Origin: Candidatus Omnitrophota bacterium
GTDB taxonomy: Bacteria > Omnitrophota > Gorgyraeia > Gygaellales > Profunditerraquicolaceae
Length of the DNA stretch: 53,790 nucleotides
Assembly (NCBI GenBank): GCA_043812095.1
Contig: JBDRMO010000030.1
Location: 1 to 53,790 of the forward strand
Direction of reading: 5' to 3'
Of the stretch, positions 12,148 through 53,790 are shown in pieces. The notes under the pieces are model-generated. The model was not told the origin of the DNA and ran no database searches. It saw only the letters and a list, made by a program, of their open reading frames with translations. A program made the position numbers and the translations under genes. Each line of letters opens with the position of its first letter. Position 1 is the first letter of the stretch.

Positions 12148-12351
12148 CTATTTTTTACAATTATTTATACTCACTCGCACCTTGGCCGGCTTCTCGCCCT
12201 CCATACCAAATAATCCCCGCACTTCCTCGGCGAGCACTTCGACCCTTACCTCTTCGCGAGGCGCTTTCAGCTCCTTAAGGGCCTTCCTTATTGCCGCCTC
12301 AACCGTGCTACCCTCAACTTCAATAGAAGATATTTCTCTGCGATTTTTCAT
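12148..12351 (-). CDS. jag: Jag/KhpB N-terminal domain protein (KH and R3H domains absent)
   Basis: 67 aa, IEVEGSTVEAAIRKALKELKAPREEVRVEVLAEEVRGLFGMEGEKPAKVRV. ATGA overlap with the yidC stop. Confidence 0.65.
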   Translation of the reverse strand: MKNRREISSIEVEGSTVEAAIRKALKELKAPREEVRVEVLAEEVRGLFGMEGEKPAKVRVSINNCKK

Positions 12352-13865
12352 TGCTGCTGCTTAATACGGATTTGATTTACCAACATCAGCGTGCTATTAA
12401 TAAACCAATATAAAACTAACCCGGACGGCATATGATAAAAAATAAACGTAAAGATAATCGGTAAAAAGATCATCATAAACTTCTGTTGTTCAGCCGATCC
12501 ACTGGCTGCAGTAGCCATGGACATTCTTTGCTGAAAAAACATGCCAATACCCATAACGATCGGCAACAGGTTAATTTCATTGCCAATTACTGGTAATGTG
12601 CTAGGCAAAACAAATAAGCGATCTGGTCCTGACAAGTCTTTTATCCAAAGAAAATTAGCTCCGCGTAACACAACTGAGCGCATTAAAGCCTGATATAAGG
12701 ATACAAATATAGGCATCTGCAACAACAACGGCAAACATCCTCCTAGGGGGTTAACTTTATGCTCACGGTACAACTCCATAATCTCCTTATTTAATTTCTG
12801 CGGATTATCCTTATGAAGCTTACGCAGCTCCTCAATATGCGGTTGTAATGCCTGCATCTCCTTCATAGAGCGCATTTGCTTTAAGGACAGCGGATAGAGA
12901 AACCCGTAAACTAAAATGCTTAAGATTACTATTGACCAGCCCCAGTTGTGTACTACGCTATGCAAGAACCCTAGTAATTGCAAAAGGATCTGTGAAATAA
13001 AATCAAAAAAGCCATAATTTACTATCCCAGCCCATTCCGGATGAACACTATTTAACAATTTTAAGTCCTGTGGCCCCAAATAGATATAAAATTTCTCCAC
13101 GAGCCTATCTCCGACCTGCAACCTGGCTTCAATAGGAGATAAGCCAATTTGAGTTGATTGCGAATCTAGCTTAGTAATCATGCCAACGTACTGCGAATCA
13201 ATGGGTTCAATGATTGCTGTAAAGTACCTCTCTCGCAACGCTAAGAAACGTATATCTGGCTGAATTGAACTTTTGTGAGCATTGATTTGTTTGACCTTGC
13301 CATCTCTGCCTACTGCAGCATTGAGATATCTGGACATCATCCGGTCAGCAGCAAAATCAAGAACTCCCAGCGATAAAGGCAAGTTAACATCCAGGGGCTC
13401 GTTAGACAAGTTTTCAATTTCAATTTCTAACTCTATGTTGTACAAACTCTTAGAGAAAATAAAGGCTTTGCTAATCTTTTTCTCTTGGTCAGAATGGACA
13501 AAGGTGATCCTATCCGAGCTGCTTTGAGCTTTTTTAAAGACTAAAGAATTGTCATCTAAGAAAAATGCAGGTGCTAACTTAAAGCGATAGTCTTTATATT
13601 TTTTGAAATTTATTTCCTGAATCGCGGCCTGTGGTTCGATGAAAACTAAATCGAATTCTTCGCGGGTATGATTTATCAGCGCTGAGGAGGGAATTGATTT
13701 TTCAAGGGCTAATGCAGGTGCGGGCGTAGAAACTCCCTGCTTCTGAGGGGGGGATTCTAACGCAACATCTTGATTATCAACAAGTTGCGTCTTAGAAACT
13801 AGGGCCTGCCAACTGAGTAAAATCAACAGGGACAAAGCAATCGCTACAACTAGACGTTTTTCCAT
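12348..13865 (-). CDS. yidC: membrane protein insertase YidC
   Basis: 505 aa with an N-terminal anchor and large periplasmic domain. C-terminal core has QMRSMKEMQALQP, NPLGGCLPLLLQMPIF and LVLYW. Confidence 0.92.
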   Translation of the reverse strand: MEKRLVVAIALSLLILLSWQALVSKTQLVDNQDVALESPPQKQGVSTPAPALALEKSIPSSALINHTREEFDLVFIEPQAAIQEINFKKYKDYRFKLAPAFFLDDNSLVFKKAQSSSDRITFVHSDQEKKISKAFIFSKSLYNIELEIEIENLSNEPLDVNLPLSLGVLDFAADRMMSRYLNAAVGRDGKVKQINAHKSSIQPDIRFLALRERYFTAIIEPIDSQYVGMITKLDSQSTQIGLSPIEARLQVGDRLVEKFYIYLGPQDLKLLNSVHPEWAGIVNYGFFDFISQILLQLLGFLHSVVHNWGWSIVILSILVYGFLYPLSLKQMRSMKEMQALQPHIEELRKLHKDNPQKLNKEIMELYREHKVNPLGGCLPLLLQMPIFVSLYQALMRSVVLRGANFLWIKDLSGPDRLFVLPSTLPVIGNEINLLPIVMGIGMFFQQRMSMATAASGSAEQQKFMMIFLPIIFTFIFYHMPSGLVLYWFINSTLMLVNQIRIKQQQ

Positions 13866-13869
13866 AAAT

Positions 13870-14085
13870 TTAGATTAGTGGATCGAAACCGCTCTTCCCG
13901 GAAAGAGGGTGACAAATCGCTATCCTCTTTAACCCCTTAAGCCCGCCTTTAAAGAAACCGTATTTGAGTATCGCCTGTTTGGTGTACTGCGAACAGCTGG
14001 GCGAAAACCGGCAAGCAGAGGGGAGAACTATTCGTAGGGTTTGTTGGTAGATACTTATGAGCTTACAAATAATCTTAACCAGCAT
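13870..14085 (-). CDS. yidD: membrane protein insertion efficiency factor YidD
   Basis: CRFSPSCSQYTKQAILKYG and HPLSGKSGFDP. The ATG at 14085 overlaps the rpmH TGA (TGATG). Confidence 0.88.
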   Translation of the reverse strand: MLVKIICKLISIYQQTLRIVLPSACRFSPSCSQYTKQAILKYGFFKGGLKGLKRIAICHPLSGKSGFDPLI

Positions 14086-14222
14086 CAACGGCTAATTATT
14101 TTTCTGCCCTTTTTTCTCCGACGCGCCAGTAACTTTCTTCCCGCACGCGTAGCCATTCTCCGTCGGAAACCATGGGTGCGTTTACCTACGATATTGGTTG
14201 GTGTCTTAAGGTTTTTCTTCAT
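14085..14222 (-). CDS. rpmH: 50S ribosomal protein L34
   Basis: The track ORF is over-extended. From ATG 14222 the product is [45 protein letters not shown] (45 aa), the classic L34 sequence. Confidence 0.92.
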
Positions 14223-14382
14223 CTTTTTAAATGCTCCTAATTGTGCATGAGTGGTAATTATAACATAAAAGTGTTTTAAGTCAATCTTTAAAAAAGAATT
14301 GTAACACATAAACCTTCCGGCGTCAAGTCAAGGAAATTCCAACAGGCATAAAACCTCTTGTGCCGCAACAAATTCTTTTGTA

Positions 14383-14410
14383 TTGACGCAAAAAAAAATT
14401 ATTATATAAT
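14383..14410 (+). promoter_or_regulatory. candidate sigma70-type promoter for dnaA
   Basis: TTGACG (14383-14388), 16-nt A/T spacer, TATAAT (14405-14410). Lies in the AT-rich rpmH/dnaA spacer. Confidence 0.5.
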
Positions 14411-14470
14411 ATTAACCGTCTGCTGTTTTATTTTTTTTCTTGTTAAGGACGCAAGAATGTGGTAATCTAC

Positions 14471-14512
14471 TTATCCACAGATTTATTCAAGGTGTGAATA
14501 AGCTGTGAATAG
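14471..14512 (+). promoter_or_regulatory. cluster of three DnaA boxes (dnaA autoregulation and/or oriC)
   Basis: TTATCCACA is a perfect consensus box (14471-14479). TGTGAATAA (14493-14501) and TGTGAATAG (14504-14512) are reverse-orientation TTATTCACA / CTATTCACA. All lie within 50 nt of the dnaA ATG. Confidence 0.7.
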
Positions 14513-14520
14513 CGAAGGTT

Positions 14521-15870
14521 ATGGGCATTATGACTAAACTAACTGCCGTATGGCAACAAGTACAAAGCAGTCTTAAGGATAAGCTCGGCGAGACTGTCTT
14601 TGAAACCTGGATCGCGCCTCTTAGGCTCAAGAGCGACAATAAAGGTTCTCTAATGCTTGAGGCGCCGGATAATTTTTTTAAAGATTGGGTGGAAAGACAT
14701 TACCGGCACCTCATAGAAGAGGAGCTACGTATTAATTCAGTAGGCCGGTCGATTACATTAAGCATCGGCGTTGGCTCAGCACCCCGGGAACTTTCGCCTG
14801 CACAATTACCAGAGAGTTTGCAAGCACAATCTAGAGAGCCAATATCGGCTACCAGCCTAAACCCAAGATATACCTTTGAAAATTTCGTCGTTGGTTCATC
14901 TAACCGCCATGCACACGCTTATTCATTAGCGGTTGCAGACGCACCGGCAAAAGCCTACAATCCTTTATTTATCTACGGGGGGGTAGGCCTGGGCAAGACC
15001 CATCTGATGCAGGCGATCTGTCATTTCATTCTAAAAAAATCTGCCCACAAGGCGACAATATGTTATCTGCCTTCGGAGCGATTCACCAATGAATTAATCG
15101 AAGGCATACAACACCATGCCACGGCTGCCTTCAGGCAAAAATATAGGAACGCCGACGTGCTGGTGATCGACGACATCCATTTTATTGCCGGTAAAGAATC
15201 AACGCAGGAAGAATTTTTTCACACTTTTAATACTCTCTACGATGCACACAAACAGATCATTATCTGCTCGGATCGCCCGCCTAAAGAAATAGCAAACCTG
15301 CAGGAGAGGCTAGTATCCAGGTTCGGCTGGGGGCTCACCACTGATATCCAGCCTCCTGATCTGGAAACCCGCGTAGCGATCTTGAAGAAAAAGTTAGAGA
15401 GAGAATCAGTGGTCGTGCCTGATGATGTAATCTTTTTTATCGCCCAGCTGATCAAGACCAATATCAGAGAACTTGAGGGGGCGCTGATCCGCACCATTGC
15501 CTATTCGCTATTAGAGGAGAAAGCAATCACGCTGACCTTAACCAAAGAGGTGTTAAGGGATTTGTTGAAAGAGCCCAAGAGGTTAATCACGGTTGATTTC
15601 GTACAGCGCTGCGCGGCAGAAGAATTCGGGGTCTCTCTGCAGGATCTAAAAACCAAGCGCAGACACAAAAACATAGTGTTGCCCAGGCAGGTTGCAATGT
15701 ATTTAAGCCGGGAGTTAACCGACCTTTCTTTACCAGAGATAGGAGGATTTTTCGGAGGCAAAGACCATACTACGGTTTTGCATTCATATAATAAGATCAA
15801 GCATGCTTTAAATTCCGATGCGGCCTTAAAAGATAAGGTAGAGAGAATTATCCACATTATTAAACAATGA
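14521..15870 (+). CDS. dnaA: chromosomal replication initiator DnaA
   Basis: 449 aa with NPLFIYGGVGLGKTHL Walker A, VLVIDDIHF, and a C-terminal DNA-binding domain (GGKDHTTVLHSYNKI). Confidence 0.97.
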   Translation: MGIMTKLTAVWQQVQSSLKDKLGETVFETWIAPLRLKSDNKGSLMLEAPDNFFKDWVERHYRHLIEEELRINSVGRSITLSIGVGSAPRELSPAQLPESLQAQSREPISATSLNPRYTFENFVVGSSNRHAHAYSLAVADAPAKAYNPLFIYGGVGLGKTHLMQAICHFILKKSAHKATICYLPSERFTNELIEGIQHHATAAFRQKYRNADVLVIDDIHFIAGKESTQEEFFHTFNTLYDAHKQIIICSDRPPKEIANLQERLVSRFGWGLTTDIQPPDLETRVAILKKKLERESVVVPDDVIFFIAQLIKTNIRELEGALIRTIAYSLLEEKAITLTLTKEVLRDLLKEPKRLITVDFVQRCAAEEFGVSLQDLKTKRRHKNIVLPRQVAMYLSRELTDLSLPEIGGFFGGKDHTTVLHSYNKIKHALNSDAALKDKVERIIHIIKQ

Positions 15871-16010
15871 ATCAACAGGTTAATACAAGGTTATGATTTT
15901 GCTAACTGTTGGGCTGAGGGAAGATTAAATCACTTTTACACAGAAATAAAAGTTATTACTATTACTACTGTTTTAATCAAACATAATAATATCTTAGAAG
16001 GAGAATAAAA

Positions 16011-17102
16011 ATGAGGTGTAAGAGCAGTAAGGAAACTTTATTAAAAGCTATTCAGTCCGTAAATAATATTATTACCACAAGATCAACGCTACCTATACTT
16101 TCTAACATCTTGATTGAAGTACAGGACAACTCTATGCGTTTAACTGCCACTGATTTAGATGTAGGTATAAGCTGTGTAATCCCTGTGGATAATCAGGAAC
16201 CCGGAGCAATTACTGTTCCGGCAAAAAGATTCAGCGATATTATTAAGGAGTTACCGAGTGAAGATGTGCAAATTAACGCAAAAAAGAACAATTCAGTTGT
16301 GATTGATACTGATGCTTGTCAGTTTAAAATTATGGGTCTACCTCGGGAAGAATTTCCTAAACTACCGGATTTTAAAGATAAGGAAGTTATTAAACTGGAA
16401 CAGGGGGCATTGAAACAATTATTAAGCCTTACTTCTTTTGCGGTTTCGTCAGATGAAACCCGGTATATTTTAAACGGCATACTCATAAGAATTAATAAAA
16501 ACACGATGACATTAGTTGCCACGGACGGCAAAAGATTGGCCATTGCGGAGAAAAAATTAAACCAGACCGTCAATAAGGATGTTCGGGTAATCGTACCGAT
16601 AAAGGCAATACGCGAACTGGACCGTAACCTCCAAGAAGAAGGAGAGTTGTCCTTGGTTCTAGGCGCCAATCAGATAATGTTTGAATTGGACAACGTAACG
16701 ATTGTATCGCGTTTGATCGAAGGGGAATTTCCGGACTACCGGCAAGTGATACCGCCGCCGTCAGAAAATAAGATTAAAATCGACCGCGCGCAGCTCCTTT
16801 TGGCTACAAAGCGCTCTGCGTTGTTATCTACCCCGGATTATCAAGCGGTTAAATTCGAGCTCTTTAAAAATAAATTGGTCATTTCTAAGTCCACTCCGGA
16901 TGTGGGCGAATCCAGGGAAGAGGTTGCGGTTGAGTATCAAGGCAAAGAATTAGTGATTGGCTTCAACCCTGTTTATTTAACCGATGTTTTACGTAACCTA
17001 AGCGATCAGTATGTAGAGCTTGAAGTTACTGATGCGGAGAAGCCCGGGGTAATGCGTATCGACGGCTATGTTTACATAGTCTTACCGATGCGCTTAAGTT
17101 AA
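16011..17102 (+). CDS. dnaN: DNA polymerase III beta sliding clamp
   Basis: 363 aa; conserved position after dnaA; LTATDLDV, VATDGKRLA and PMRL C-terminus. Confidence 0.95.
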   Translation: MRCKSSKETLLKAIQSVNNIITTRSTLPILSNILIEVQDNSMRLTATDLDVGISCVIPVDNQEPGAITVPAKRFSDIIKELPSEDVQINAKKNNSVVIDTDACQFKIMGLPREEFPKLPDFKDKEVIKLEQGALKQLLSLTSFAVSSDETRYILNGILIRINKNTMTLVATDGKRLAIAEKKLNQTVNKDVRVIVPIKAIRELDRNLQEEGELSLVLGANQIMFELDNVTIVSRLIEGEFPDYRQVIPPPSENKIKIDRAQLLLATKRSALLSTPDYQAVKFELFKNKLVISKSTPDVGESREEVAVEYQGKELVIGFNPVYLTDVLRNLSDQYVELEVTDAEKPGVMRIDGYVYIVLPMRLS

Positions 17103-17114
17103 GCGGGGGCTGCA

Positions 17115-19879
<2,765 letters not shown>

Positions 19880-19902
19880 GTGAGTCCCGCATTCTGCGTG
19901 AC

Positions 19903-20025
19903 GAACTTACCCAAGCACTAATTTTTGTATTTGTACCTGAATGCAAATTAGTGCAGGGTTAAATTCGCAGACGCTACAACCAATAATTGGAGGGCTATAA
20001 CTTACGTTATGAAAACGTAAGCTAT
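19903..20025 (+). repeat. bipartite hairpin element, AACTTAC family, copy 1
   Basis: GAACTTACCC, then a roughly 17-bp hairpin (GCACTAATTT..AAATTAGTGC), then GGGTTAAATTCGC. A spacer follows, then ATAACTTACGTT-ATGAA-AACGTAAGCTAT (19997-20025), 12 nt before the gyrA ATG. Confidence 0.6.
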
Positions 20026-20036
20026 CTGCTCATTAA

Positions 20037-22352
20037 ATGTATACTAGAAATGAAAAGATAATTCCGGTTTATATCGAAGAGGAAGTAAAAGATTCTTATT
20101 TGAATTACGCGATGAGCGTAATCGTCGGTCGCGCGCTTCCCGATGTACGTGACGGCCTCAAGCCAGTGCATAGGCGCATACTCTTTGCGATGCAGGAGCT
20201 GAGCCTGAACCATAGCAAGCCTTATAAAAAATGCGCACGTATTACAGGTGAGGTTCTGGGTAAATACCATCCGCACGGAGATACTGCGGTTTACGATACT
20301 CTGGTGAGGATGGCGCAGAGTTTTTCTCTACGCTATCCATTAGTTGAGGGGCAGGGCAACTTCGGATCAGTCGACGGAGATGCGCCTGCCGCGATGCGCT
20401 ACACCGAGGCGCGTTTAGCCGCAATCTCTGATGAGATGTTGGCGGATATTGAAAAGAATACCGTGCGCTTCGGGCCTAATTTTGACTCATCCTTAGAGGA
20501 ACCACTTTTATTGCCGGCTGCCCTGCCCAATCTCTTAGTAAACGGCTCAAGCGGCATAGCTGTGGGAATGGCGACTAATATTCCGCCGCATAATTTAAGA
20601 GAAGTGGCAGATGGGATTGTCTATCTTCTGGATCATCCGCAAGCAGAGATCAAAGACCTGATGAGACATATAACAGGACCGGACTTTCCGACCGGCGGGA
20701 TTATCTGCGGCAAGGGAGGGATCAAAGATGCATATACAACCGGTAGAGGCAAGCTGGAGGTGCGTGCCAGGGCGACTGTGGAGCGTCAAAAAGGCGGTAA
20801 GGACTTAATAATTATTACTGAGATCCCTTATCAGGTGCAGAAAGCAGGGTTGATTGAAACCATGGCCGGGCTGGTAGAGGATAAAAAGATAGAGGGTATC
20901 TCTGATATCCGTGATGAATCCGATAAAGACGGCATGCGTATTGTAGTTGAGCTGAAGCGGGACGTCGAGGCTCAGATTATCCTGAATCAGCTCTTTAAGC
21001 ACACCAGCTTAAAGACTACCTTTGGCGTGATTATGTTGGCTTTAGTAGATAATCGTCCTCGGGTGTTGAATTTACGCCAGGTGCTTGAGTGTTATATTGA
21101 GCATCGTAAGGTGATCATTCGTCGGCGTACCCAGTTTGAATTAGAGAAGGCAGAGAAGCGTGCGCATATTTTAGAGGGATTAAAAATTGCCCTCAAATAT
21201 ATAGACCGGATAGTCAAAACCATCAAGACCTCTAAGTCCACGGAGATTGCCCGCGAACGCCTGGTAAAACAATTCAAGCTTTCCGAGATTCAGGCTCAGG
21301 CAATTTTAGAGATGCAGCTTCAGCGCTTGACTGCGCTTGAGAGAGATAAGATTGATGCCGAATATGCAGAGTTACTCAAAAAAATCGAGCTCTGTAAGAG
21401 TATTCTTGCATCTGAGAAAAAAATCGAAGGCATTATTAAAGAAGAGCTGGAGACTTTAAAGAAAAAATACGGTGACGAGCGCAGGACTGACCTCGTAGGG
21501 GATGTGGAAGAACTGGAGATAGAGGATTTGATTGCCGAAGAGGATGTGGTGGTTACCATAAGCCATGGCGGGTATATTAAACGCCTGCCGGTAAGTGCTT
21601 ACCGTAAGCAAAAGCGCGGTGGCACAGGGTCGACGGGTGCGGGAGTCAAGGAGGAGGATTTTGTCGAACACCTCTTTATCGCTTCGACAAAAGATTATCT
21701 ACTAATTTTTACCAATCAAGGTCAGGTGCATTGGTTAAAAGTGTACGAGATCCCGCAGGCCGGACGCGTTTCTAAAGGGAAGGCAATAGTCAACCTGATA
21801 CAATTGGCATCCGGGGCTAACGTTAGCTCGACTATTCCGGTCAAGGAATTTTCCGCAGATAAATTGTTAGTTATGGTTACCAGGCAGGGGATGGTGAAGA
21901 AGACCCGGCTGGATGCCTATAGTAATCCGCGCAAAGGCGGGATTATCGGGATTACCTTAGACAAGGGCGATGAGCTGATTGGAGTGAATCTATCCGATGG
22001 AAAGCAGGAATTACTCATCGGTACTCGAGAAGGTAAATCTATAAGGTTCCTGGAGACCAAGGTCAGGGATATGGGGAGAACCGCACGCGGCGTACGAGGT
22101 ATTGCTTTAGCCAAGACGGATCGTGTAATCGGTATGGTTTTGGCTGAAAAAGATTCCGCAGTCTTGACAGTGACAGAATTAGGTTTTGCCAAGCGCACGC
22201 CGGTTAAGGAGTATCGTCTCACCAGCCGCGGAGGCAAGGGAGTGATTAACATCAAGGTGACTGATAAGAACGGTGAGGCAATAAGCTTGAAGATGGTAAA
22301 TGATCAAGACGAATTAATGGTGATCACTCAGCACGGCATGTTCCTACGCTGA
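20037..22352 (+). CDS. gyrA: DNA gyrase subunit A, ORF as it stands up to an in-frame TGA
   Basis: 771 aa with [45 protein letters not shown] (catalytic Tyr) and C-terminal pinwheel blades. Confidence 0.95.
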
Positions 22353-22567: not shown

Positions 22568-24055
22568 ATGCAAGCAAAAGTTTTTCAAGCCGCAACAATC
22601 CTATTATGCGTTATTCTGATTGTGGCAGCGCAGTTTGCTATTCCCACGATTTTCGGAGCCGACGGTTATCTACACATCAGAATGGCCCAACTCATGCGGG
22701 ACGATGGGGTAATCCGGGATTTTGATTGGGCGCGCTATTCTACATTTGCCGAACATTTTTCCGATAAGGATTTTCTCTATCATCTCATACTGATACCTTT
22801 TACGTTTTTTGCTGATATATTTTTCGGGGCCAAAGTTGCCGCAGCCCTCTTTGCGCTAGTTTTATTTTTGGCCTTTGCTTATATGCTCCGGCGTTACTGT
22901 TCGGTGCAGGCGCTCGTCCCATTTTTCCTTGTAATGTTTCTTTGCTCATCCCATTTTTTACAGGCGATCAACCGCCCGCGGAACATGGTTTTTATTATCG
23001 CCCTCAGTTTACTTTTTGTACACTTTTTGATTCAAAAAAAACAACTGTTTTTATGTTTGATCGCGGTGGTTTATACCTTAAGTCATGTCTCCGGGCCGTT
23101 CCTCTTTGTTATTGCTTTAGCGGCGGAGACTGTGCGATTTATTTATAACCGCCAATTTTTCTGGAAATCTCTTAGGGCAGTGGCGTTTGGTATATTATTG
23201 GGGCTTTTGATCCATCCAAACTTCCCAAACAATATATTGGTATTTTATTTAAACGGCATACTAGTGCCGCTTTATTCCTTTAAATGGGGGCTGGAGCTAG
23301 GCGCTGAATTTTTCCCTGCCGATACCAGGAGCTTGGTTTTAGGTTACCCTGCTGTCTGGGTTAGTTTATTTTTATTCATAGCTTTAGGAATGAGCAAGGG
23401 CAACAAGATGGGGATTGCGACTCGCATATGGATGTGTGTGGCCGGGCTCTTTTTTGCTCTATCGCTCTTCTCTCAGCGTTACATCATTCACAGCTACCCG
23501 ATGATATTAGTGGCCGGGGCCTCTTATATCTCTGATTGGTGGGCAAGCGGAGTGCGCTTAGGGGCTGTCAGGCAGAATAGAAATCTGAGGAATATTATGC
23601 TGGGGGTTGCTGCGGGACTAGTGTTATTTACCGGTTTTTATGTTTACAGGGATTTTCGCAGCGACGCCTTCCGAATCAAGGAGTACAATCAGCACTATGA
23701 ACGCGCAGCAGGATGGATATCCAAATATGTTCCTAAGGGGGAGATCGTGTTTCATGCCAATTGGTCAGACTCGCAGTATTTTATCGGGCTGGCACCTGAA
23801 TATATTTATTTTGTTACGCTCGACCCGATCTATATGTATTATTGGAACCCCAGAAAATATAATCTTTACCGGGACATAGCCTTTGGCAGGGCCAAAGACC
23901 CTTACGTTTTACTAAAAGACGAGTTCGCTAGCTGGTACGGTTATGTAGGTAAAAACTATTTTTCCGGGCTGATCCAGCAGATCAGGGCTGATCAGCGTTT
24001 TAAGATCCTGGCAGAGGATAGGTTGGGACTGTTGTTCCGTTTAATGCCGGGTTGA
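22568..24055 (+). CDS. polytopic membrane protein, possibly a GT-C-type glycosyltransferase
   Basis: 495 aa with about 10-12 hydrophobic helices and a soluble C-terminal region. Assignment rests on overall architecture only. Confidence 0.3.
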   Translation: MQAKVFQAATILLCVILIVAAQFAIPTIFGADGYLHIRMAQLMRDDGVIRDFDWARYSTFAEHFSDKDFLYHLILIPFTFFADIFFGAKVAAALFALVLFLAFAYMLRRYCSVQALVPFFLVMFLCSSHFLQAINRPRNMVFIIALSLLFVHFLIQKKQLFLCLIAVVYTLSHVSGPFLFVIALAAETVRFIYNRQFFWKSLRAVAFGILLGLLIHPNFPNNILVFYLNGILVPLYSFKWGLELGAEFFPADTRSLVLGYPAVWVSLFLFIALGMSKGNKMGIATRIWMCVAGLFFALSLFSQRYIIHSYPMILVAGASYISDWWASGVRLGAVRQNRNLRNIMLGVAAGLVLFTGFYVYRDFRSDAFRIKEYNQHYERAAGWISKYVPKGEIVFHANWSDSQYFIGLAPEYIYFVTLDPIYMYYWNPRKYNLYRDIAFGRAKDPYVLLKDEFASWYGYVGKNYFSGLIQQIRADQRFKILAEDRLGLLFRLMPG

Positions 24056-40912: not shown

Positions 40913-41518
40913 GTGATAGATATGGCAGAGCAGATTAAAGATTTGATCGAGAAGATTCAGCAGGAAGGCCTTAAGGTAGCTGAGGATAATGCCCGGGTAA
41001 TAGAACAGCAGGCCAGGCATCAGGCGGATGAGATCATTAAAAGGGCAAAAAAAGAGGCAGAGAAGATTGTTGCCGATGGTAAGGGTACGGTAGCGAGGAT
41101 GGAGCAAAGCACCCAGGCTGCGCTGCAGCAGGCAGGACGGGATCTGATACTAAGCTTAAAGAAAGAGATCAATGCCATGCTTGATAAGCTGATTGCATCA
41201 AGCGTCCATGAAACGCTTAGCTCCGGAGAATTGCTCAAGATCATCACAACGCTAATCAATAATTATAAGGGTAAAGACAAAGAAAATATTATTATTTCAC
41301 TGAAGAAAGAAGACCTGAAGAAGCTAGAGAAGGATTTATTAGCTGCGCTCGGCCGATCTGCTCAAAAGGGGGTTAGCCTTAAAGCTGAGGATGATATCCG
41401 CGGCGGCTTTATCATCAGTTATGATGCGGGAAAATCGCATTTTGACTTTACGGATAAGGCTTTAAGCGAATACATCGCTACATCACTTAAGCCGCAATTA
41501 AAAGATATATTGAAATAA
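40913..41518 (+). CDS. atpE: V-type ATPase subunit E
   Basis: About 200-aa coiled-coil protein (AEQIKDLIEKIQQEG...EAEKIV). First gene of the operon. The start may be ATG 40922 rather than GTG 40913. Confidence 0.75.
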   Translation: MIDMAEQIKDLIEKIQQEGLKVAEDNARVIEQQARHQADEIIKRAKKEAEKIVADGKGTVARMEQSTQAALQQAGRDLILSLKKEINAMLDKLIASSVHETLSSGELLKIITTLINNYKGKDKENIIISLKKEDLKKLEKDLLAALGRSAQKGVSLKAEDDIRGGFIISYDAGKSHFDFTDKALSEYIATSLKPQLKDILK

Positions 41519-48167: not shown

Positions 48168-48848
48168 ATGAAAGCAGAGAAGATAAGGGAAGCGAAAGAG
48201 TTAAGAAGGCGTGGCTGGTCTGTTAGGGCTATTGCGCAGCAAATACATTGCTCTAAGAGCTCAGTTAGTATTTGGGTGAGAGATATACCTCTTACCACTC
48301 AACAGATAGAGAGGCTCAAAGTAGCCCAAGATAGAGGAAGGGCAAGGGCCGCAAATCACCCAAATAGTTCAAAATACAGATGGGAAAGAATCCGCCAAGA
48401 GATAATTAATACTACGAAGGCGGAGATTCCCAAAGAATACTCCTTAGAGAACTTAAAATGTATAGGCGCTTCTTTGTATTGGGCTGAAGGTTATAACGCT
48501 TCTATAAATTCATTCGTATTTGCCAATAGCGATAGTGTTATGATAAGATTAATGATGAAGTTCCTTAGAGAAATATGTAGTATTCCTTCAGGTAAATTAC
48601 GAGGTCGAGTTAATATACATCCACATTTAGATATTAAAAAATCTGAAAAATACTGGTCAGAGATTAGCGGGATTCCTTTATCGCAATTTCATAAGCCCCT
48701 TTTATCGATAAGCAAGGCTAGCAAGCAAAAGAGGAAGACGTTGCCACATGGAACTTTTCGGATAGTCATTTCGGATGTTCATTTATGCAGTAGAATCAAG
48801 GGGTGGATTCAGGGGTTGAAAGATTGGGCGATTGGCTCAGTTGGTTAG
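48168..48848 (+). CDS. HTH plus LAGLIDADG-like (homing-endonuclease-like) protein
   Basis: N-terminal helix-turn-helix RRGWSVRAIAQQIHCSKSSVSIWV. A central GASLYWAEGYNA...FVFANSDSVMIRLMMKFL resembles a LAGLIDADG core with Glu. The last 23 nt lie inside tRNA-Val. Confidence 0.4.
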   Translation: MKAEKIREAKELRRRGWSVRAIAQQIHCSKSSVSIWVRDIPLTTQQIERLKVAQDRGRARAANHPNSSKYRWERIRQEIINTTKAEIPKEYSLENLKCIGASLYWAEGYNASINSFVFANSDSVMIRLMMKFLREICSIPSGKLRGRVNIHPHLDIKKSEKYWSEISGIPLSQFHKPLLSISKASKQKRKTLPHGTFRIVISDVHLCSRIKGWIQGLKDWAIGSVG

Positions 48849-48902
48849 AGCGTTGCGCTTACATCGCAAAGGTCACAGGTTCGAATCCTGTATCGCCCAC
48901 CA
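48826..48902 (+). tRNA. tRNA-Val (UAC), CCA encoded
   Basis: Acceptor GGGCGAT/ATCGCCC, anticodon stem TTGCG/CGCAA with loop CTTACAT, T arm ACAGG-TTCGAAT-CCTGT, then ACCA. Confidence 0.9.
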
Positions 48903-48958
48903 TAAATTTTTATTGCAACGCCCAATATTTTAGGGTACAATTTACATCTTATCTTTCT

Positions 48959-49036
48959 GGGCCCGTGGTGTAGTCTGGTTAACATGTCAGATTGTCGATC
49001 TGAAGATCGCGAGTTCAAATCTCGTCGGGCCCGCCA
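48959..49036 (+). tRNA. tRNA-Asp (GUC), CCA encoded
   Basis: Acceptor GGGCCCG/CGGGCCC, anticodon stem TCAGA/TCTGA with loop TTGTCGA, T arm GCGAG-TTCAAAT-CTCGT, then GCCA. Confidence 0.9.
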
Positions 49037-49411
49037 GTCTTCGCTCAGCACTTAACGTGCAGAGCTTCGCCTGGCTTACGCCAAAATATGCATTGCGTAT
49101 ATATTCTCACCAGCAAAAAAGACAAAAGAAAATTTTATGTAGGTTATACTAATAATCTTCAAAGGCGTCTAGTAGATCACAAAAATCCACCGAAAAATTC
49201 TTACACACATAGATACGGCCCTTGGGCATTAGAGACATATAGTGTATTTTCTGAGAGAAGATTAGCGAAAGCATTTGAGGTATATCTCAAGAGTCATTCT
49301 GGCAGAGCCTTTTTGAGGCGGAGACTAGCAGTTGTATCGTAGAAATCCGGCGTAGCCGTCAGAACTTTTTTGTTTATTATAAGGCGCAGCCGGATCGTCG
49401 GGCCCGCCAGT
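49022..49411 (+). mobile_element. about 0.37-kb insertion at the tRNA-Asp 3' end, bounded by 17-bp direct repeats, carrying a GIY-YIG gene
   Basis: TCGTCGGGCCCGCCAGT occurs at 49022-49038 (the 3' end of tRNA-Asp plus GT) and again at 49395-49411. No integrase is present. Confidence 0.6.
49088..49342 (+). CDS. GIY-YIG nuclease-family protein (small, UPF0213-like)
   Basis: 84 aa, VYILTSKKDKRKFYVGYTNNLQRRLVDH, which gives the GIY..YIG and Arg motif spacing. Confidence 0.75.
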   Translation: MHCVYILTSKKDKRKFYVGYTNNLQRRLVDHKNPPKNSYTHRYGPWALETYSVFSERRLAKAFEVYLKSHSGRAFLRRRLAVVS

Positions 49412-49418
49412 TAATCCC

Positions 49419-49447
49419 TTGACGGCTTAATATTTTATTGTTAAAAT
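49419..49447 (+). promoter_or_regulatory. candidate promoter of the lipoprotein/desulfurase/radical-SAM cluster
   Basis: TTGACG (49419-49424), 17-nt spacer, TAAAAT (49442-49447). AAGGAGG precedes ATG 49498. Confidence 0.45.
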
Positions 49448-49497
49448 AATTAATTCGTTAAAATAAACTATTTTATTAAAAGAAAAGGAGGTGCTCT

Positions 49498-50115
49498 ATG
49501 AGCAAGAAGCAGATTTGTCTTCTTTTGGGAGTATTTATGCTGAGCAGTTTGTTCTCGGGCTGTACCTATTTAAAGAATAGGGGTAATGACGCTATGGATA
49601 TGTTTGACACAGGGATTATCCTTACCTCAAAACCAAACTTTGCCCTTTATACAGATCTAGGCATGGTGCTTCCGATGGGCTTTAGCCATATTGATGGAAA
49701 ATTAATAGGAATCGGCAGGAGTAATTTTGGAGTACATGATTTTCGGCTGAATGGATATGGTTATGTAATCGGTGGGAAAATGCAGCGGGGAGTTGATAAT
49801 TACAATCCTGATGATCCTAATGATCCTCCGACCTATCCTGTCGGTATCCCAGCCCTTATGGACGGAACACACATGGCCAGTATTGACCCTGGCAGATATG
49901 AAGAGCGCCCTAAGACAAGATATACTTGCCCAAAGGTAATTCATTTAGGCTGGATAGGTTTTGATTTCGGATGTAAGCTTTGGGATATGCTTGATTTCAT
50001 ATTAGGGTGGACTACGCTTGATATCGGCGAAGATGATGTTGCTGGAGTCCAGGCGCACGCAAGCTCTGAATATTCGATTAAAGAACCGATGGATGACGCA
50101 TCTGTAATGAAGTAG
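49498..50115 (+). CDS. lipoprotein, function unknown
   Basis: Signal peptide with lipobox LFSGC (MSKKQICLLLGVFMLSSLFSGC); 205 aa. Confidence 0.6.
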   Translation: MSKKQICLLLGVFMLSSLFSGCTYLKNRGNDAMDMFDTGIILTSKPNFALYTDLGMVLPMGFSHIDGKLIGIGRSNFGVHDFRLNGYGYVIGGKMQRGVDNYNPDDPNDPPTYPVGIPALMDGTHMASIDPGRYEERPKTRYTCPKVIHLGWIGFDFGCKLWDMLDFILGWTTLDIGEDDVAGVQAHASSEYSIKEPMDDASVMK

Positions 50116-50119
50116 GATT

Positions 50120-51538
50120 ATGCAGCTATCGAATGCCCCTAGAATATCAATTGAACAGATTCGCAGTAAAATCACAGGGCTGGAAAAAGAAGTTCCTCTG
50201 ATTACCGGTGGATCGCGTCCCTACATTAACTTCGATAACGCCGCCACTACGCCCTCTTTCAAATCAGTGATTGAAAAAATTACGCAGTTTAGTGAATGGT
50301 ATGCCAGCGTGCATCGGGGAACCGGTTTTAAGTCTCAGCTATCCACGCATATATATGAAAATTGCCGCAAAAAAGTTATGCAGTTTGTGGGCGCAGACAG
50401 CAAAGACCACGTAGCGATCTTTACCAGTAATACCACCTGCGCAATAAATAACGTCTGTCAGCATATCGAATTAAAGGATAACGAAGTAATCCTGGTTACG
50501 ATAGTAGAGCACCATTCGAACATGTTGCCCTGGAGGGTGAACTGTCCTGTCGAATACGTTGACATGTTTGATGCTGAAGGCAATTTTAGCAGCAATAAGC
50601 TCGAAGAGAAATTACGCAGCAGTAAGAAGAAGGTCCGTCTGGTAGCGATAACCGGAGCTTCCAATGTAACGGGGTGCATACCGCCGATTAAAGAGGTCTC
50701 CGGCATAGTGCATAAGTACGGGGCAGAGCTTTTGCTAGATGCAGCGCAATTGATTGCCTGCCGGCCCGTAGAGATGCTTTCATTGGATAGCCCAGAGAGA
50801 ATAGATTATCTTGTATTCAGTGCTCATAAAATGTATGCGCCATTCGGCGTAGGGGTAATTATCGGTCCGCGCAAGACTTTTATCTCCGGCCGGCCTTATA
50901 TCGTCGGAGGAGGTACGGTAGATTTAGTTACATTGGATGATATAGAATGGACAGATGCTCCTGAGCGGGATGAGCCGGGAACGCCGAATCTTATCGGAGT
51001 AGTGGCATTAGCCGAGGCAATAGCAGGATTGGGTAAGATCGGCTGGGATTTTATTGTCAGGCATAACCGTTTTTTAACCAAGAAGTTGCTGGAGGAATTA
51101 AGAAAGCTGTCTGGGATCACCATCTATGGTAAGTGTGATCCGGATTGCCCGGTTGATCGGGCGGGAGTGGTTACATTTAATGCCCAGGGTATTTCGCATG
51201 CCCTGCTGGCAGCAGTCTTAGGATATGAATGGGGCATCGGTGTGCGTAACGGCTGTTTTTGCGCGCAGCCTTATGTAACAAAACTATTGGGATTAGATCA
51301 GGTAGCAGTGGCAAATTATGCAGAGCAGATTAGGAAGGGCAATTGGAGTAAGGTTCCCGGTATGGTGAGGGCGAGTTTTGGGATCTATAATACCGAGGAG
51401 GAGATAGATTATTTTATCCAAGCGCTTACTTCGATATTGGAGAAAGGTGCCCAAGCTTCATATACGATGAATCCTCAGACAGGAGAGTATTCTCCGGAGG
51501 AAAGAGCGTCGGATTTTGATCAGTACTTTTCTGTTTAA
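50120..51538 (+). CDS. class V aminotransferase, SufS/CsdA-like cysteine desulfurase
   Basis: 472 aa with NFDNAATT, HHSN, SAHKMYAPFG (PLP lysine), and RNGCFCAQPY resembling the SufS active-site loop R.GHHCA.P. Confidence 0.7.
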   Translation: MQLSNAPRISIEQIRSKITGLEKEVPLITGGSRPYINFDNAATTPSFKSVIEKITQFSEWYASVHRGTGFKSQLSTHIYENCRKKVMQFVGADSKDHVAIFTSNTTCAINNVCQHIELKDNEVILVTIVEHHSNMLPWRVNCPVEYVDMFDAEGNFSSNKLEEKLRSSKKKVRLVAITGASNVTGCIPPIKEVSGIVHKYGAELLLDAAQLIACRPVEMLSLDSPERIDYLVFSAHKMYAPFGVGVIIGPRKTFISGRPYIVGGGTVDLVTLDDIEWTDAPERDEPGTPNLIGVVALAEAIAGLGKIGWDFIVRHNRFLTKKLLEELRKLSGITIYGKCDPDCPVDRAGVVTFNAQGISHALLAAVLGYEWGIGVRNGCFCAQPYVTKLLGLDQVAVANYAEQIRKGNWSKVPGMVRASFGIYNTEEEIDYFIQALTSILEKGAQASYTMNPQTGEYSPEERASDFDQYFSV

Positions 51539-51552
51539 ATACAATAAAAGTT

Positions 51553-53082
51553 ATGGCTAATTTAGGCGTATGTAACAAGTGTAAAAAATCAGTTCCGGTA
51601 AAACATTTTCAGAAGGACGGTAAAGAGTATCTGGAAAAACTCTGTCCTGATTGCGGAACTGTGTCTTCATTGATTTCCAATGATGCCAAGCAGTATAATC
51701 GCAAAAGAGACTTTATGGCTGACCGGCATTATCCTGGATGCCATATGGATTGCCTTAGTAATTGCACTCATAGAGACCCCAACATTATTTTTATCGAGAC
51801 CACCAACCGCTGCAATATGAATTGTCCGATCTGTATTACTAATGTCCCATCAATGGGCTTTCAGTTTGAGCCGCGCCTGGAGTTTTTTGAGCGGATATTC
51901 AGCCATTACGCAAAATTCGAGCGGCCGCCTTCCGTACAACTGTTCGGCGGAGAACCCACGATGAGAGAAGACCTTCTGGATATTATTAAGCTCGCCAAAT
52001 CCTATGGGCTCTCGATACGCCTGGTGACCAACGGATTAAAGCTCTCTGATAAGGCCTACGCAGAGAAGATTATGGCCAGCGGCGCTGCGATATTGATTGC
52101 TTTTGACGGCCTAAAAAGAGAGATGTACCAGAAGTTAAGAAACTTTCCTGAGTCATTAGATATAAAATTAAAGGCGTTAGAGAATCTTACCCATCATAAG
52201 CGCAGGAAGGTTGTGCTGATGACCGTTGTTGATAAAAACATAAATGGCGATGATATGCCGAACTTTCTCGATTACTGTTTAAAGAACCGGCATATCCGTG
52301 GAATATTCCTTATGCCTTTGACTCAGGTATGGTCAGACGAGAGGCTAGAGTATAAACCCGAGAGGACCACGCAAGAGGATGTAGAAAATATCGTCAAGAA
52401 TGCAATCGGAGGCAAGACAGAGTTTGTTCCTTTGGGTTCATGGGAATTTCAGAATATAGCAAAAGTCTTTAAGCAAACCTTGATGCCCTTTACCGGAGTG
52501 CATCCGAATTGCGAAAGCTTCACTTATCTTATCCCGCGCGGGAATAAATATGTTTCCATATCCGATTATTTGAAGTTCGGCTTATTCTCGCTAGTTGCTG
52601 ATCTAAGAGCGATGGATAAAAAGATAGAACCCTATACCTTAAAAGGCGGTATCGGCAAATGGCATAAATTCAAAGTGCAACTGGCGTTAGTAACAATGCT
52701 GTTTAAACATATAGATTTAACTGCTGTGATCGGTAAAAGAGGGTTACCTGCGCTCATCGCATGGATACGTTTTTTTGGGAAACTTCTCTGTGGCCGGAAA
52801 TTTATTGAGGTTCTTAGTGCAGAGACTACCTTAACAGATATCAGAGGGGCATTACAGATTTTATTACTGCCTTTTGAAGATGATGATATCCTGGAGAGTT
52901 CCCGCTTAGAGAAATGCGCTTCCTGTTTTGCCTATATTGACGTAAAGAGCGGTTTGGTGAAATCTATACCTTTTTGTATCTGGGAAAAATATAAAAAACC
53001 GATTATGAAAGAGATTGCCGAAGAATATAATAAAGAGGGCTACACCAAGGGATTATCATCAAAGAAAGCAGCTTGTTCATGA
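51553..53082 (+). CDS. radical SAM protein with N-terminal rubredoxin-like CxxC..CxxC module (Tes/GDGT-MAS-like architecture)
   Basis: 509 aa. Cysteines are C7-x2-C10...C31-x2-C34, then C63-x3-C67-x3-C71. Radical SAM motif is TTNRCNMNCPIC (C87-x3-C91-x2-C94). C-terminal cysteines are CASC...C. Confidence 0.7.
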   Translation: MANLGVCNKCKKSVPVKHFQKDGKEYLEKLCPDCGTVSSLISNDAKQYNRKRDFMADRHYPGCHMDCLSNCTHRDPNIIFIETTNRCNMNCPICITNVPSMGFQFEPRLEFFERIFSHYAKFERPPSVQLFGGEPTMREDLLDIIKLAKSYGLSIRLVTNGLKLSDKAYAEKIMASGAAILIAFDGLKREMYQKLRNFPESLDIKLKALENLTHHKRRKVVLMTVVDKNINGDDMPNFLDYCLKNRHIRGIFLMPLTQVWSDERLEYKPERTTQEDVENIVKNAIGGKTEFVPLGSWEFQNIAKVFKQTLMPFTGVHPNCESFTYLIPRGNKYVSISDYLKFGLFSLVADLRAMDKKIEPYTLKGGIGKWHKFKVQLALVTMLFKHIDLTAVIGKRGLPALIAWIRFFGKLLCGRKFIEVLSAETTLTDIRGALQILLLPFEDDDILESSRLEKCASCFAYIDVKSGLVKSIPFCIWEKYKKPIMKEIAEEYNKEGYTKGLSSKKAACS

Positions 53083-53098
53083 GCAGAGGGGAGAAAAG

Positions 53099-53790
53099 AT
53101 GACAATGAATATGGGGATGTGTGATAGATGCAGAAAAGTCGTGCCTGTCACTCACCACCAAAAAGACAACAAAGAGTATTTACATAAGCATTGCCCTGAT
53201 TGCGGCAAGGTAGAGACACTGGTTTCTAACGACGCAACTAAATACCGAAGCAAAAGAGAGTTTCTCTCTGAGCATAAATATCAGGGATGCCATATGTCAT
53301 GTCTTGACTGTATGCATAAGGTGCCAAACATCGTTTTTGTCGAAACCACCAACCGCTGCAATATGAATTGTCCGATCTGTATTACCAATGGTCCCTCAAT
53401 GGGTTTTCAGTTTGAGCCGCGCCTGGAGTTTTTTGACCGGATATTTAAGTATTGTTCCCAGCTTGAGCATCCTCCTTCAATCCAGTTGTTCGGAGGTGAG
53501 CCCACAGTGCGTGAGGATATGTTTGAGATTATCGAGCTTGCAAAATCCTACGGCCTGATTGTACGTATTGCCACTAATGGCTTGAAAATGGCGGATAAGG
53601 CGTACGCTCAAAAGGTAATCGATAGCGGAGCCACTGTGCTGATCGCCTTCGATGGCTTTAAAAAAGAGATGTATGCCGAGTTACGCGCGCATCCGGAGGC
53701 ACTGGGATTCAAGCTCAAAGCATTAGAAAATCTTTCTGGGCATCAGAATGGAAAAGTAGTGTTGATGTCCGTAATTGATAAGCAGATTAA
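53099..53790 (+). CDS. second, tandem radical SAM paralogue (3' end runs off the window)
   Basis: Not in the track because no stop lies in the window. ATG 53099 follows GAGGGGAG. Product reads MTMNMGMCDRCRKV...CPDCG...TTNRCNMNCPICITN...LFGGEPTVRED, collinear with the upstream paralogue. Confidence 0.8.
   Translation, partial: MTMNMGMCDRCRKVVPVTHHQKDNKEYLHKHCPDCGKVETLVSNDATKYRSKREFLSEHKYQGCHMSCLDCMHKVPNIVFVETTNRCNMNCPICITNGPSMGFQFEPRLEFFDRIFKYCSQLEHPPSIQLFGGEPTVREDMFEIIELAKSYGLIVRIATNGLKMADKAYAQKVIDSGATVLIAFDGFKKEMYAELRAHPEALGFKLKALENLSGHQNGKVVLMSVIDKQI

Follow-up and report, generated by a model that had tools for sequence, protein, structure and literature searches.

Archaeal tetraether synthase (Tes, also called GDGT-MAS; MJ0619 and MA_1486, structures 7TOL and 7TOM, NCBIfam family NF045702) is the closest described relative of two radical S-adenosylmethionine (SAM) proteins that we found encoded, together with a SufS-like cysteine desulfurase and a lipoprotein, at the end of a 53,790-nucleotide stretch of DNA from Candidatus Omnitrophota bacterium (GenBank assembly GCA_043812095.1, contig JBDRMO010000030.1; hereafter, the window). 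In the passages of Zeng et al. considered here, bacterial Tes homologs are proposed as sources of branched glycerol dialkyl glycerol tetraethers (GDGTs), widely used palaeoclimate proxies with poorly known sources and biosynthesis for which these homologs are standing candidates, and the best acidobacterial homologs are 40–42% identical to Tes, with E-values of 1e-139 to 1e-149 (Zeng et al. 2022, PMC8941075). A survey of metagenome-assembled genomes (MAGs) from the Black Sea, in the passages considered here, reports Tes homologs especially in Planctomycetota (110/684 MAGs) and Chloroflexota, and names Omnitrophota MAGs for homologs of Mss and ElbD, this phylum not being among those listed there for Tes (10.1101/2024.06.25.600576). 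The Mss enzymes are the confirmed bacterial synthases of membrane-spanning lipids, and the only ones proven so far (PMC13159169); they form a different family, remotely related to Tes (PMC13159169; reviewed in PMC13459092).

The locus described here indicates that the enzymes of a large and divergent bacterial branch of Tes relatives do not stand alone: in anaerobic and mostly uncultured lineages of the Planctomycetes–Verrucomicrobia–Chlamydiae type, a specialized desulfurase and a lipoprotein accompany them in a conserved module. Neither this module of three genes, nor its "GCFC" subfamily of desulfurases, nor its family of lipoprotein domains has been described before, and the enzyme itself is a divergent relative of Tes.

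A Four-Gene Cluster Cut by the Contig End

The window is the entire MAG contig as obtained from NCBI, and its lipoprotein is identical to ABIH19_02285 (Candidatus Omnitrophota). The four genes, all on the + strand, code for the lipoprotein, the SufS-like pyridoxal 5'-phosphate (PLP) enzyme, and the radical SAM proteins rSAM-A and rSAM-B, with spacers of 4, 14, and 16 nt between them. The features of the cluster are as follows:

49419–49447, + strand: sigma-70-like promoter candidate, TTGACG-17-TAAAAT, with a TG ahead of the second hexamer as extended -10 (10/12 matches)
49485–49491, + strand: Shine–Dalgarno sequence AAGGAGG, 6 nt 5' of the lipoprotein ATG, read directly from the sequence
49498–50115, + strand: lipoprotein, 205 aa, lipobox LFSG-C22; probable envelope-anchor domain family, a distant relative of the LIC13411 outer-membrane family of Leptospira
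50120–51538, + strand: SufS-type (class V, type II) PLP enzyme, 472 aa, "GCFC" subfamily
51553–53082, + strand: rSAM-A, 509 aa, Tes/GDGT-MAS-like; predicted rubredoxin-like site and three predicted [4Fe-4S] sites
53099–53790, + strand: rSAM-B, paralog of rSAM-A; N-terminal 230 codons readable, then contig end

An earlier note, made from the letters of the window, had reported these four tightly spaced genes, and all the features that it listed were found where it had placed them. It had also remarked that the cluster leaves the window; since the window is the whole contig, the truncation of rSAM-B is real and the cluster is truly cut. As for the length of about 509 aa that it gave for both paralogs, this is exact for rSAM-A, but the length of rSAM-B cannot be read from the window. 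In the close relative L001, the counterpart of rSAM-B measures 521 aa, keeps all the metal ligands, and is 95% identical to rSAM-B of the window over the shared 230 aa. The two paralogs of the window are themselves 66% identical over 228 aa.

Divergent Bacterial Relatives of Tetraether Synthase

Profile, sequence, and model comparisons indicate that rSAM-A and rSAM-B are true homologs of archaeal Tes/GDGT-MAS, beyond the shared architecture from which the resemblance had initially been proposed. In Pfam, rSAM-A consists of a Radical_SAM domain and a Zn_ribbon_HMPTM head, and the rSAM-B fragment has both as well. Tes stands at the top of the 56 NCBIfam matches of rSAM-A (180.8 bits, residues 5–488 versus positions 4–482 of the 486 in the model) and scores 131.5 bits on the rSAM-B fragment. 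The second-best profile of rSAM-A, the TrsS radical SAM (seleno)protein (NF045646; 146.7 bits, under its cut-off of 490), has in common the zinc-ribbon/rubredoxin head, the N-terminal cluster, and the core, over residues 6–282, but not the C-terminal domain, and rSAM-A contains no selenocysteine codon; after these two, the other NCBIfam families match the radical SAM core only, at 75 bits or less. In a phmmer search of PDB sequences, GDGT-MAS (7TOL) came first with an E-value of 1.5e-40 and MoaA next with 6e-11. Finally, an AlphaFold (AF2) model of rSAM-A computed with 16 family members as input (predicted local distance difference test [pLDDT] score 81.6, predicted template modeling [TM] score 0.83) was matched by Foldseek to 7TOM/7TOL with TM 0.74/0.76 and an E-value of 8e-30 over 515–536 columns, the next structure, MoaA, being at TM 0.34.

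The earlier note had named, as the outcome that would speak against a Tes relationship, best matches to SPASM-containing peptide maturases and no likeness to Tes beyond the core. What we found is the reverse: no SPASM, twitch, or RRE-type peptide-binding domain was detected in rSAM-A by Pfam or NCBIfam profiles, peptide-maturase families reach 35–62 bits on the radical SAM core only, and SkfB, SuiB, and PqqE superpose on the model with TM 0.28–0.34.

The cysteine motifs follow the same pattern. The CxxC-x20-CxxC motif, the second Cys triad, and the CNMNCPIC motif previously pointed out are all there, reading C7xxC10-x20-C31xxC34, C63x3C67x3C71, and C87NMNC91PIC94 in rSAM-A and C8, C11, C32, C35, then C64x3C68x2C71, then C88, C92, C95 in rSAM-B. 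The C-terminal CxxC...C of the complete paralog (C455xxC458...C475) is present too, but C458 is variable across the wider family and a further invariant cysteine, C320 in HPNCES, had been overlooked. On the basis of the ligand sets of GDGT-MAS (PMC9433317), we propose that C7, C10, C31, and C34 of rSAM-A would bind a rubredoxin-like iron, C63, C67, and C71 an N-terminal auxiliary cluster, C87, C91, and C94 the radical SAM cluster, and C320, C455, and C475 a C-terminal auxiliary cluster. In alignment A3, composed of six sequences (GDGT-MAS as rebuilt from the HMMER alignment, an archaeal Tes, both paralog types, and two planctomycete/Sumerlaeota members), C7, C10, C31, C63, C67, C71, C87, C91, C94, H317, C320, C455, and C475 are invariant.

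Compared with archaeal Tes/GDGT-MAS, rSAM-A thus has the same four-domain fold, the same order of metal sites, a similar length, and the same His317 before the first cysteine of the C-terminal cluster. It also has a hydrophobic helical region where GDGT-MAS binds lipid tails: residues 343–430, which align to the amphipathic lipid-pocket helices of GDGT-MAS, are 51% hydrophobic versus 41% for the whole protein and carry a net charge of +7. It differs in being 28–31% identical only, with 28% against GDGT-MAS, in a C-terminal tail that is about 30 aa longer, and in two ligands. The fourth rubredoxin ligand is a Cys (C34) instead of His36 of GDGT-MAS, as in all the bacterial sequences examined except L049, and Leu stands in place of Met439, the labile ligand of the C-terminal cluster, in 4/4 bacterial sequences of A3, L439 being invariant in the 16-member alignment A1; Glu321 and Glu442, which flank the C-terminal cluster site, are invariant. 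The Omnitrophota genes further depart from their archaeal counterparts in being tandem-duplicated and in having desulfurase and lipoprotein genes beside them and, as the host is bacterial, isoprenoid diether substrates of the archaeol type are not to be expected.

The family to which these proteins belong is large, with 679 word-indexed matches, the best 120 of which are all at least 38% identical, and its members come from Omnitrophota, Planctomycetota, Sumerlaeota, Lentisphaerota, Auribacterota, Verrucomicrobiota, Desulfobacterota, and one acidobacterial MAG. Several paralogs per genome are common in planctomycetes, in agreement with the richness of Planctomycetota in the considered passages of the Black Sea survey, and the acidobacterial homologs reported in PMC8941075 are much closer to Tes than the family described here. 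In a neighbor-joining tree, the radical SAM proteins linked to the desulfurase and the lipoprotein occupy three sub-branches, with unlinked paralogs interspersed.

Two other arrangements were observed in the wider family. In a sister clade from Phycisphaerae/Planctomycetia (L044, L048, L053, L056, L059, L060, L062, and L069), a gene for a lipobox-bearing thioredoxin-like protein lies directly upstream of the radical SAM gene, with no SufS-like gene and no lipoprotein of the present family, which suggests that thiol chemistry and lipoproteins are partners that recur in the family. In MAGs of other Omnitrophota, of Auribacterota, and of Verrucomicrobia (L010–L016; e.g., L010 10001–12900), a radical SAM gene whose product is 50% identical is followed by a divergent Tes-like one (about 27% identity) that has the archaeal-type Cys-Cys-Cys-His rubredoxin site, and these loci contain no lipoprotein or SufS-like gene.

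A Three-Gene Partnership Conserved across Phyla

The distribution of the partners was investigated from both ends, gene order being established from tblastn matches and from genes called in independent contigs. One scan took the radical SAM protein as its anchor: the window proteins were searched by tblastn on 79 distinct loci, with one genome per GTDB species, and the lipoprotein, radical SAM, and SufS-like genes adjoin in at least 16 of the 79 loci, belonging to Omnitrophota, Planctomycetota, Sumerlaeota, and Lentisphaerae/Lentisphaerota MAGs. The order is lipoprotein-SufS-rSAM-rSAM in Omnitrophota and lipoprotein-rSAM-SufS elsewhere; called genes in L084 and L085 confirm it, and there the lipoprotein stop overlaps the radical SAM start.

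In the reciprocal scan, anchored on the lipoprotein in 79 metagenome loci and scored for partner distance according to the downstream sequence available, a radical SAM or SufS-like gene starts within 600 nt in 30 of the 58 loci for which 400 nt or more of downstream sequence exist. When at least 2.5 kb are available (28 loci), both partners are found in 9 cases, the radical SAM gene only in 7, the SufS-like gene only in 2, and neither in 10, such that at least one partner is present in 18/28. All pairwise combinations of the genes thus occur, which fits a three-part module with a fluid operon structure. The partnership is conserved across phyla, and this is a new observation. The remark that a desulfurase and a lipoprotein lie outside the described Tes systems held up in a full-text literature search: no mention of a desulfurase was found in the considered passages of PMC8941075 or 10.1101/2024.06.25.600576, and no desulfurase/lipoprotein partnership was found in the wider literature searched.

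Other genes near the trio were considered as well. Neighbor clusters c19–c21 (DnaX, RecR, and a membrane protein) were rejected as partners, their recurrence being synteny among close relatives. A sulfatase-family gene (cluster c22) occurs near the trio in three planctomycete loci only (L031 7469–9073, L039 4339–5679, and L040 1–807) and may also be mere synteny among relatives. With regard to the trio itself, a 266-kb metagenome contig (L085 2130–11651) contains four Tes-like radical SAM genes, one of them split into called fragments of 248 and 249 aa, along with two lipoprotein paralogs and one SufS-like gene. In a MAG labeled delta-proteobacterial (L081/L083, contig_2604), the trio is frameshifted and fragmented, with the SufS-like gene split and on the opposite strand and the radical SAM gene broken with stops, which reflects either a decaying locus or indel errors of long reads.

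The GCFC Desulfurase Subfamily

The SufS-like protein matches Aminotran_5 in Pfam (290.8 bits) and aligns over its full length to SufS of Bacillus subtilis (5XT5, E 3e-60), with a score of 304.3 bits on the SufS family TIGR01979, under the cut-off of 475. Like type II desulfurases of the SufS/CsdA group (TIGR01979; 5XT5, 1JF9), it keeps the HHSN motif, the PLP lysine in SAHK, the EPGTP motif, and the RxGxxCAQP catalytic loop, as seen in the alignment to 5XT5/5J8Q; the loop RNGCFCAQP(Y) that had been recognized in this 472-aa class V enzyme is thereby confirmed. HHSN, SAHK, and the loop are kept throughout the trio loci where these regions are covered. Unlike them, it reads GCFC where the canonical enzymes read GHHC, so that another invariant Cys precedes the catalytic one by two residues, and it carries an insert of about 21–22 aa after the loop, at 387–407. 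The signature GIGVR(N/H)GCFCA(Q/H)PY and the insert are present in every trio locus that covers the region (18 of 20 aligned sequences, all phyla). Also unlike the SufS/CsdA group, no sufE, sufU, or sufBCD gene was found in the window or beside the operon in the annotated relatives L001, L002, L084, and L085. By its sequence, the protein belongs to a specialized, distinct, and previously undescribed desulfurase subfamily. Among its members, planctomycete proteins (L031, L036, L039, and L073) bear a Cys-rich N-terminal extension of about 15–25 aa (e.g., CQACC, CRAC) that the Omnitrophota version does not have.

The Lipoprotein Domain Family

The N-terminus of the lipoprotein reads MSKKQICLLLGVFMLSSLFSG-C22, in which a positively charged start and a hydrophobic stretch lead to the LFSG-C22 lipobox, in line with the lipobox lipoprotein announced in the earlier note; the G-C pair is found in 23/24 homologs. 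The protein has no match to a Pfam family. Alignment A2 of its family reveals a conserved GC-TYLxNRGNDAxDxFDxG segment straight after the lipidated Cys, a C-terminal DFILGWTTLDIxxDD motif, and near-invariant C144 and H149 residues. Clustering at 90% identity sorts its homologs into 178 groups (90 representatives with an E-value of 1e-30 or lower), all of them unnamed proteins of uncultured bacteria. The AF2 model (pLDDT 81.8) shows long beta hairpins, for which Foldseek returned no PDB match at E 0.001 or below.

Two observations bear on the nature of this domain. On one hand, longer relatives carry it at their N-terminus, with peptidoglycan-binding LysM domains (in five cases) or DUF11, Chlamydia-OMP6, and CARDB surface repeats after it (fusion proteins P0253, P0291, P0306, P0313, P0322, and P0345), and these fusions suggest an outer-membrane-to-peptidoglycan or surface-anchor role. 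On the other hand, the lipoprotein scores 27.3 bits on NF047817 (LIC13411) over its C-terminal 28 residues only, under a cut-off of 150, and intermediates of 78–107 bits (107 for P0384) connect the two families. LIC13411 fractionates with the outer membrane of Leptospira (PMC9354625). Both families have lipoprotein-sized members of about 200 aa and the same C-terminal DFxLGW..D..DD motif, whereas the N-terminal GC-TYLxNRGNDA segment is specific to the family of the Omnitrophota lipoprotein, and an adhesin role is not inferable from the relationship with the LIC13411 adhesins. On this basis, the lipoprotein domain looks like an envelope anchor. Tandem arrays of lipoprotein paralogs were also encountered, with five copies in L148 (2396–6368) and four in L149 (2–3129); no radical SAM or SufS-like gene was found beside them on these short contigs.

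Continuation of the Operon in Close Relatives

A look-up of the exact rSAM-A sequence returned no match, and extending the cluster to its end, as the earlier note had advised, was achieved through the contigs of relatives: a 93% relative (L001, GCA_043813305.1), a second contig of the same bin (L004), and a 73% relative (L002). In L001 and L004, rSAM-A is followed by rSAM-B, then by a secreted 180-aa TPR protein with weak matches to YbgF/BamD, a 662-aa N-terminally anchored protein with a sub-threshold AsmA match (18 bits, E 1.3e-3), and a 504-aa Alginate_exp-type (AlgE-like) beta-barrel (37.7 bits), after which comes a gap of about 375 nt. In L002, the barrel gene directly follows rSAM-B. The three layouts imply that the Omnitrophota operon comprises five to seven genes, with envelope proteins encoded at its end, a continuation that lies outside the window and resembles, in Omnitrophota only, the TPR and barrel export pairs of AlgK/AlgE type and the AsmA-like lipid bridges.

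The complete seven-gene operon is present on two contigs of one MAG bin (L001/L003, JBDRLC010000019.1, and L004, JBDRLC010000047.1), with proteins 87–93% identical to those of the window and to each other, which reflects either a mixed-strain bin or a true duplication.

Proposed Function and Alternatives

The reading that we tentatively favor, while regarding it as possible rather than probable, is that the module performs Tes-type radical chemistry on the tails of membrane lipids, the desulfurase feeding the clusters and the product serving the envelope. In this hypothesis, one or two cytoplasmic radical SAM enzymes of Tes build would act with a dedicated GCFC desulfurase of SufS type and an exported lipoprotein. 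Each enzyme would hold a rubredoxin-like iron, the cluster that cleaves SAM, and two auxiliary [4Fe-4S] clusters, one N-terminal and one C-terminal, the latter beside a hydrophobic and basic helical region. The 5'-deoxyadenosyl radical would take a hydrogen from the end of the hydrocarbon tail of a membrane lipid, and the resulting carbon radical would be captured, as in Tes, on a sulfur of the C-terminal auxiliary cluster, before the reaction finishes as a tail-to-tail or tail-to-partner bond. The desulfurase would mobilize sulfur from cysteine to build, repair, or re-supply the radical SAM clusters, and the modified lipid would serve the cell envelope, where the lipoprotein is expected to reside along with, in Omnitrophota, the TPR, AsmA-like, and AlgE-like products. 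These functional claims rest on genomic context.

Several points weigh against this reading. Seven bacterial members score 155–193 bits on the Tes equivalog model, missing its cut-off of 450 bits, when an archaeal control from Methanofastidiosum (L082) reaches 622; the bacterial family members are not Tes equivalogs. To our knowledge, no bacterial Tes homolog has experimentally demonstrated activity. Moreover, the known bacterial makers of membrane-spanning (iso-)diabolic acid use Mss and are mostly without Tes homologs (PMC13159169). Because of these three points, we infer C–C coupling of lipids rather than observe it: of the Tes-like lipid-coupling cluster initially proposed, the Tes homology stands, but at 181 versus 450 bits the coupling does not follow from it. 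In addition, archaeal Tes works without a dedicated desulfurase, so that cluster supply alone leaves the recruitment of one unexplained. No lipid-biosynthesis gene is found in the recurrent neighborhood of the trio loci, and a search of the rest of the window for such genes returned none, the remainder being housekeeping. The downstream envelope genes were found in Omnitrophota loci only, and the 662-aa AsmA-like protein, with no NCBIfam or PDB support, is a weak lead. Lastly, the association of the desulfurase with the lipoprotein is no looser than its association with the radical SAM protein. Lipoprotein–SufS pairs with no radical SAM gene within 6 kb exist in L093 (in the order dprA, lipoprotein, SufS, nadB) and L101, so that the lipoprotein, not the radical SAM enzyme, emerges as the partner of the desulfurase, and this tight and partly rSAM-independent link suggests that sulfur chemistry or the lipoprotein itself is perhaps central.

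A private desulfurase that tracks the lipoprotein is a pattern better accommodated by two alternatives. According to the first, the chemistry would be sulfur-retaining: the product would contain a C–S bond, as in a thiol or a thioether-bridged lipid or in the thioether lipidation of a lipoprotein Cys at an open cluster iron, and the desulfurase would replace the sulfur consumed. As a matter of fact, when a biosynthetic gene cluster has its own desulfurase, the product as a rule contains sulfur, as illustrated by DndA, and the auxiliary clusters of LipA, BioB, MiaB, and RimO are sacrificial or re-sulfurated. The parallel with LipA, BioB, MiaB/RimO, and the sactisynthases that form thioethers is limited to mechanism, in that a carbon radical attacks the sulfur of an auxiliary cluster and sulfur has to be supplied; the homology of rSAM-A to these unrelated radical SAM families ends at the core (40–75 bits), and it has no SPASM domain. 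Closer to the present family, the GDGT-MAS intermediate has a bond between a substrate carbon and a cluster sulfur (PMC9433317). The replacement of Met439 by an invariant Leu, the invariant Glu321 and Glu442 that flank the C-terminal cluster site, the extra invariant Cys in the desulfurase loop, the near-invariant Cys22 of the lipoprotein with the unusually conserved segment that follows it, and its near-invariant Cys144 go in the same direction, as do the overlap between the lipoprotein stop and the radical SAM start and the pairing of the sister clade with an exported thioredoxin-like lipoprotein. However, the M439A variant of GDGT-MAS is still active (PMC9433317), so that the loss of Met alone need not alter the chemistry. 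Type II desulfurases normally require a SufE/SufU acceptor, of which none is encoded nearby, and the evidence for sulfur retention is wholly contextual. We know of no sulfur-bridged or omega-thiol membrane lipid in bacteria, nor of thioether lipidation by a tail end. Overall, we consider sulfur retention somewhat unlikely, and that the Tes scaffold has been repurposed to C–S chemistry, either for thiol- or thioether-bridged lipids or to link the end of a lipid tail to a lipoprotein Cys through a thioether, strikes us as rather doubtful.

According to the second alternative, which we hold to be unlikely, the radical SAM proteins would be maturases that modify the lipoprotein precursor in the cytoplasm before its Sec-dependent export, on a side chain or through a cross-link, lipids not being the substrate at all. 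Such a role has analogs in anSME, which acts on sulfatases, and in QhpD, which acts on QhpC. The lipoprotein gene stands directly 5' of the radical SAM gene, with translational coupling in many loci, and it is often duplicated beside it (L036, L061, L073, and L085) or present in the 4–5-paralog arrays of L148 and L149, as would be expected for substrates of a shared maturase; the near-invariance of the segment after the lipobox Cys and of several Asp, Cys, and His residues is also in keeping with a modified target. What argues the other way is that the whole architecture of Tes has been kept, down to the hydrophobic helical region from which the lipid pockets of GDGT-MAS are built, when none of the peptide-binding domains searched for (SPASM, twitch, RRE-type) is present. 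Besides, about 55 of the 79 loci anchored on the radical SAM protein have no such lipoprotein nearby, and 10 of the 28 loci anchored on the lipoprotein lack both partners over 6 kb.

That the genes have no functional link, the SufS-like protein being a housekeeping desulfurase for Fe–S clusters and the lipoprotein unrelated, with a placement due to chance or co-regulation, is very improbable: no catalytic residue expected of an ordinary type II desulfurase is missing from the enzyme, the genomes of Omnitrophota are small, and our view of this one is limited to a single contig, but the trio is found again in four phyla or more, with its genes in different orders, the desulfurase forms a signature subfamily of its own in exactly these loci, and suf/isc scaffold genes are not adjacent. 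A pterin methyltransferase (7,8-dihydro-6-hydroxymethylpterin dimethyltransferase, HMPTM), as suggested by the JGI names of several homologs and by the Pfam name Zn_ribbon_HMPTM, is hardly credible, since the hosts are not methanogens, no methanopterin pathway genes lie nearby, and the annotation itself was discarded, the assignment of MJ0619 being irreproducible and the protein having been shown to be GDGT-MAS (PMC9433317). A link with ladderane biosynthesis, considered for the loci labeled Brocadiia, was likewise rejected, the proposed ladderane enzyme being a B12-dependent radical SAM protein beside fatty-acid synthesis genes.

Coming back to lipid-tail chemistry, the locus provides a testable handle on the role of bacterial Tes relatives, in which sulfur may take part, and it ties the enzyme to outer-envelope biology in phyla with poorly understood envelopes. 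It delimits a set of three or four co-expressible genes, which may explain why tests of a single gene would fail. If the product turned out to be an ordinary C–C coupled lipid, the system would be a new and useful member that has accessory factors; should sulfur be retained or the lipoprotein be the target, the biochemistry would be new; and if a lipid tail were thioether-linked to a lipoprotein Cys, this would constitute a previously unknown protein lipidation, anchoring envelope proteins through the middle of the membrane.

Upstream Signals and Remainder of the Window

A single promoter at 49419–49447 had been proposed for the cluster. The site exists, in the sole sizeable intergenic gap 5' of the operon, but promoter-like matches are no commoner in the region than in shuffles (12 found versus 13.5 expected), so that the candidate, backed by its position alone, is plausible. 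The -10 and most of the -35 are kept in L004, not in L001 or L002, and the GGAGG core and the lipoprotein ATG are kept in all three. A search for a riboswitch or leader RNA 5' of the operon with Rfam returned two tRNAs only.

The spacer between the operon of a V-type ATPase and the cluster (48168–49342) looks variable or mobile. It encodes a 226-aa HTH_23 protein with weak matches to the N-terminal part of IS630/IS21 transposases, the 3' end of which overlaps tRNA-Val, followed by tRNA-Asp and an 84-aa GIY-YIG nuclease gene; at the same spacer, the 93% relative L001 has only a 53-aa helix-turn-helix gene and a 99-aa open reading frame (ORF).

Elsewhere in the window, sizeable ORFs with no Pfam family occur at 22568–24055, 37349–38565, 40913–41518, and 944–1465, among which are a 495-aa ORF between tRNA-Glu and glmS and two adjoining ORFs of about 200 aa after fpg, and a 412-aa ORF at 29825–31063 matches the hypothetical family TIGR00375 only, below its cut-off. 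Finally, 10426–22352 is the region of the chromosomal replication origin: the GC skew switches sign near 14 kb, between parB, parA, and yidC on the - strand and dnaA, dnaN, gyrB, and gyrA on the + strand.

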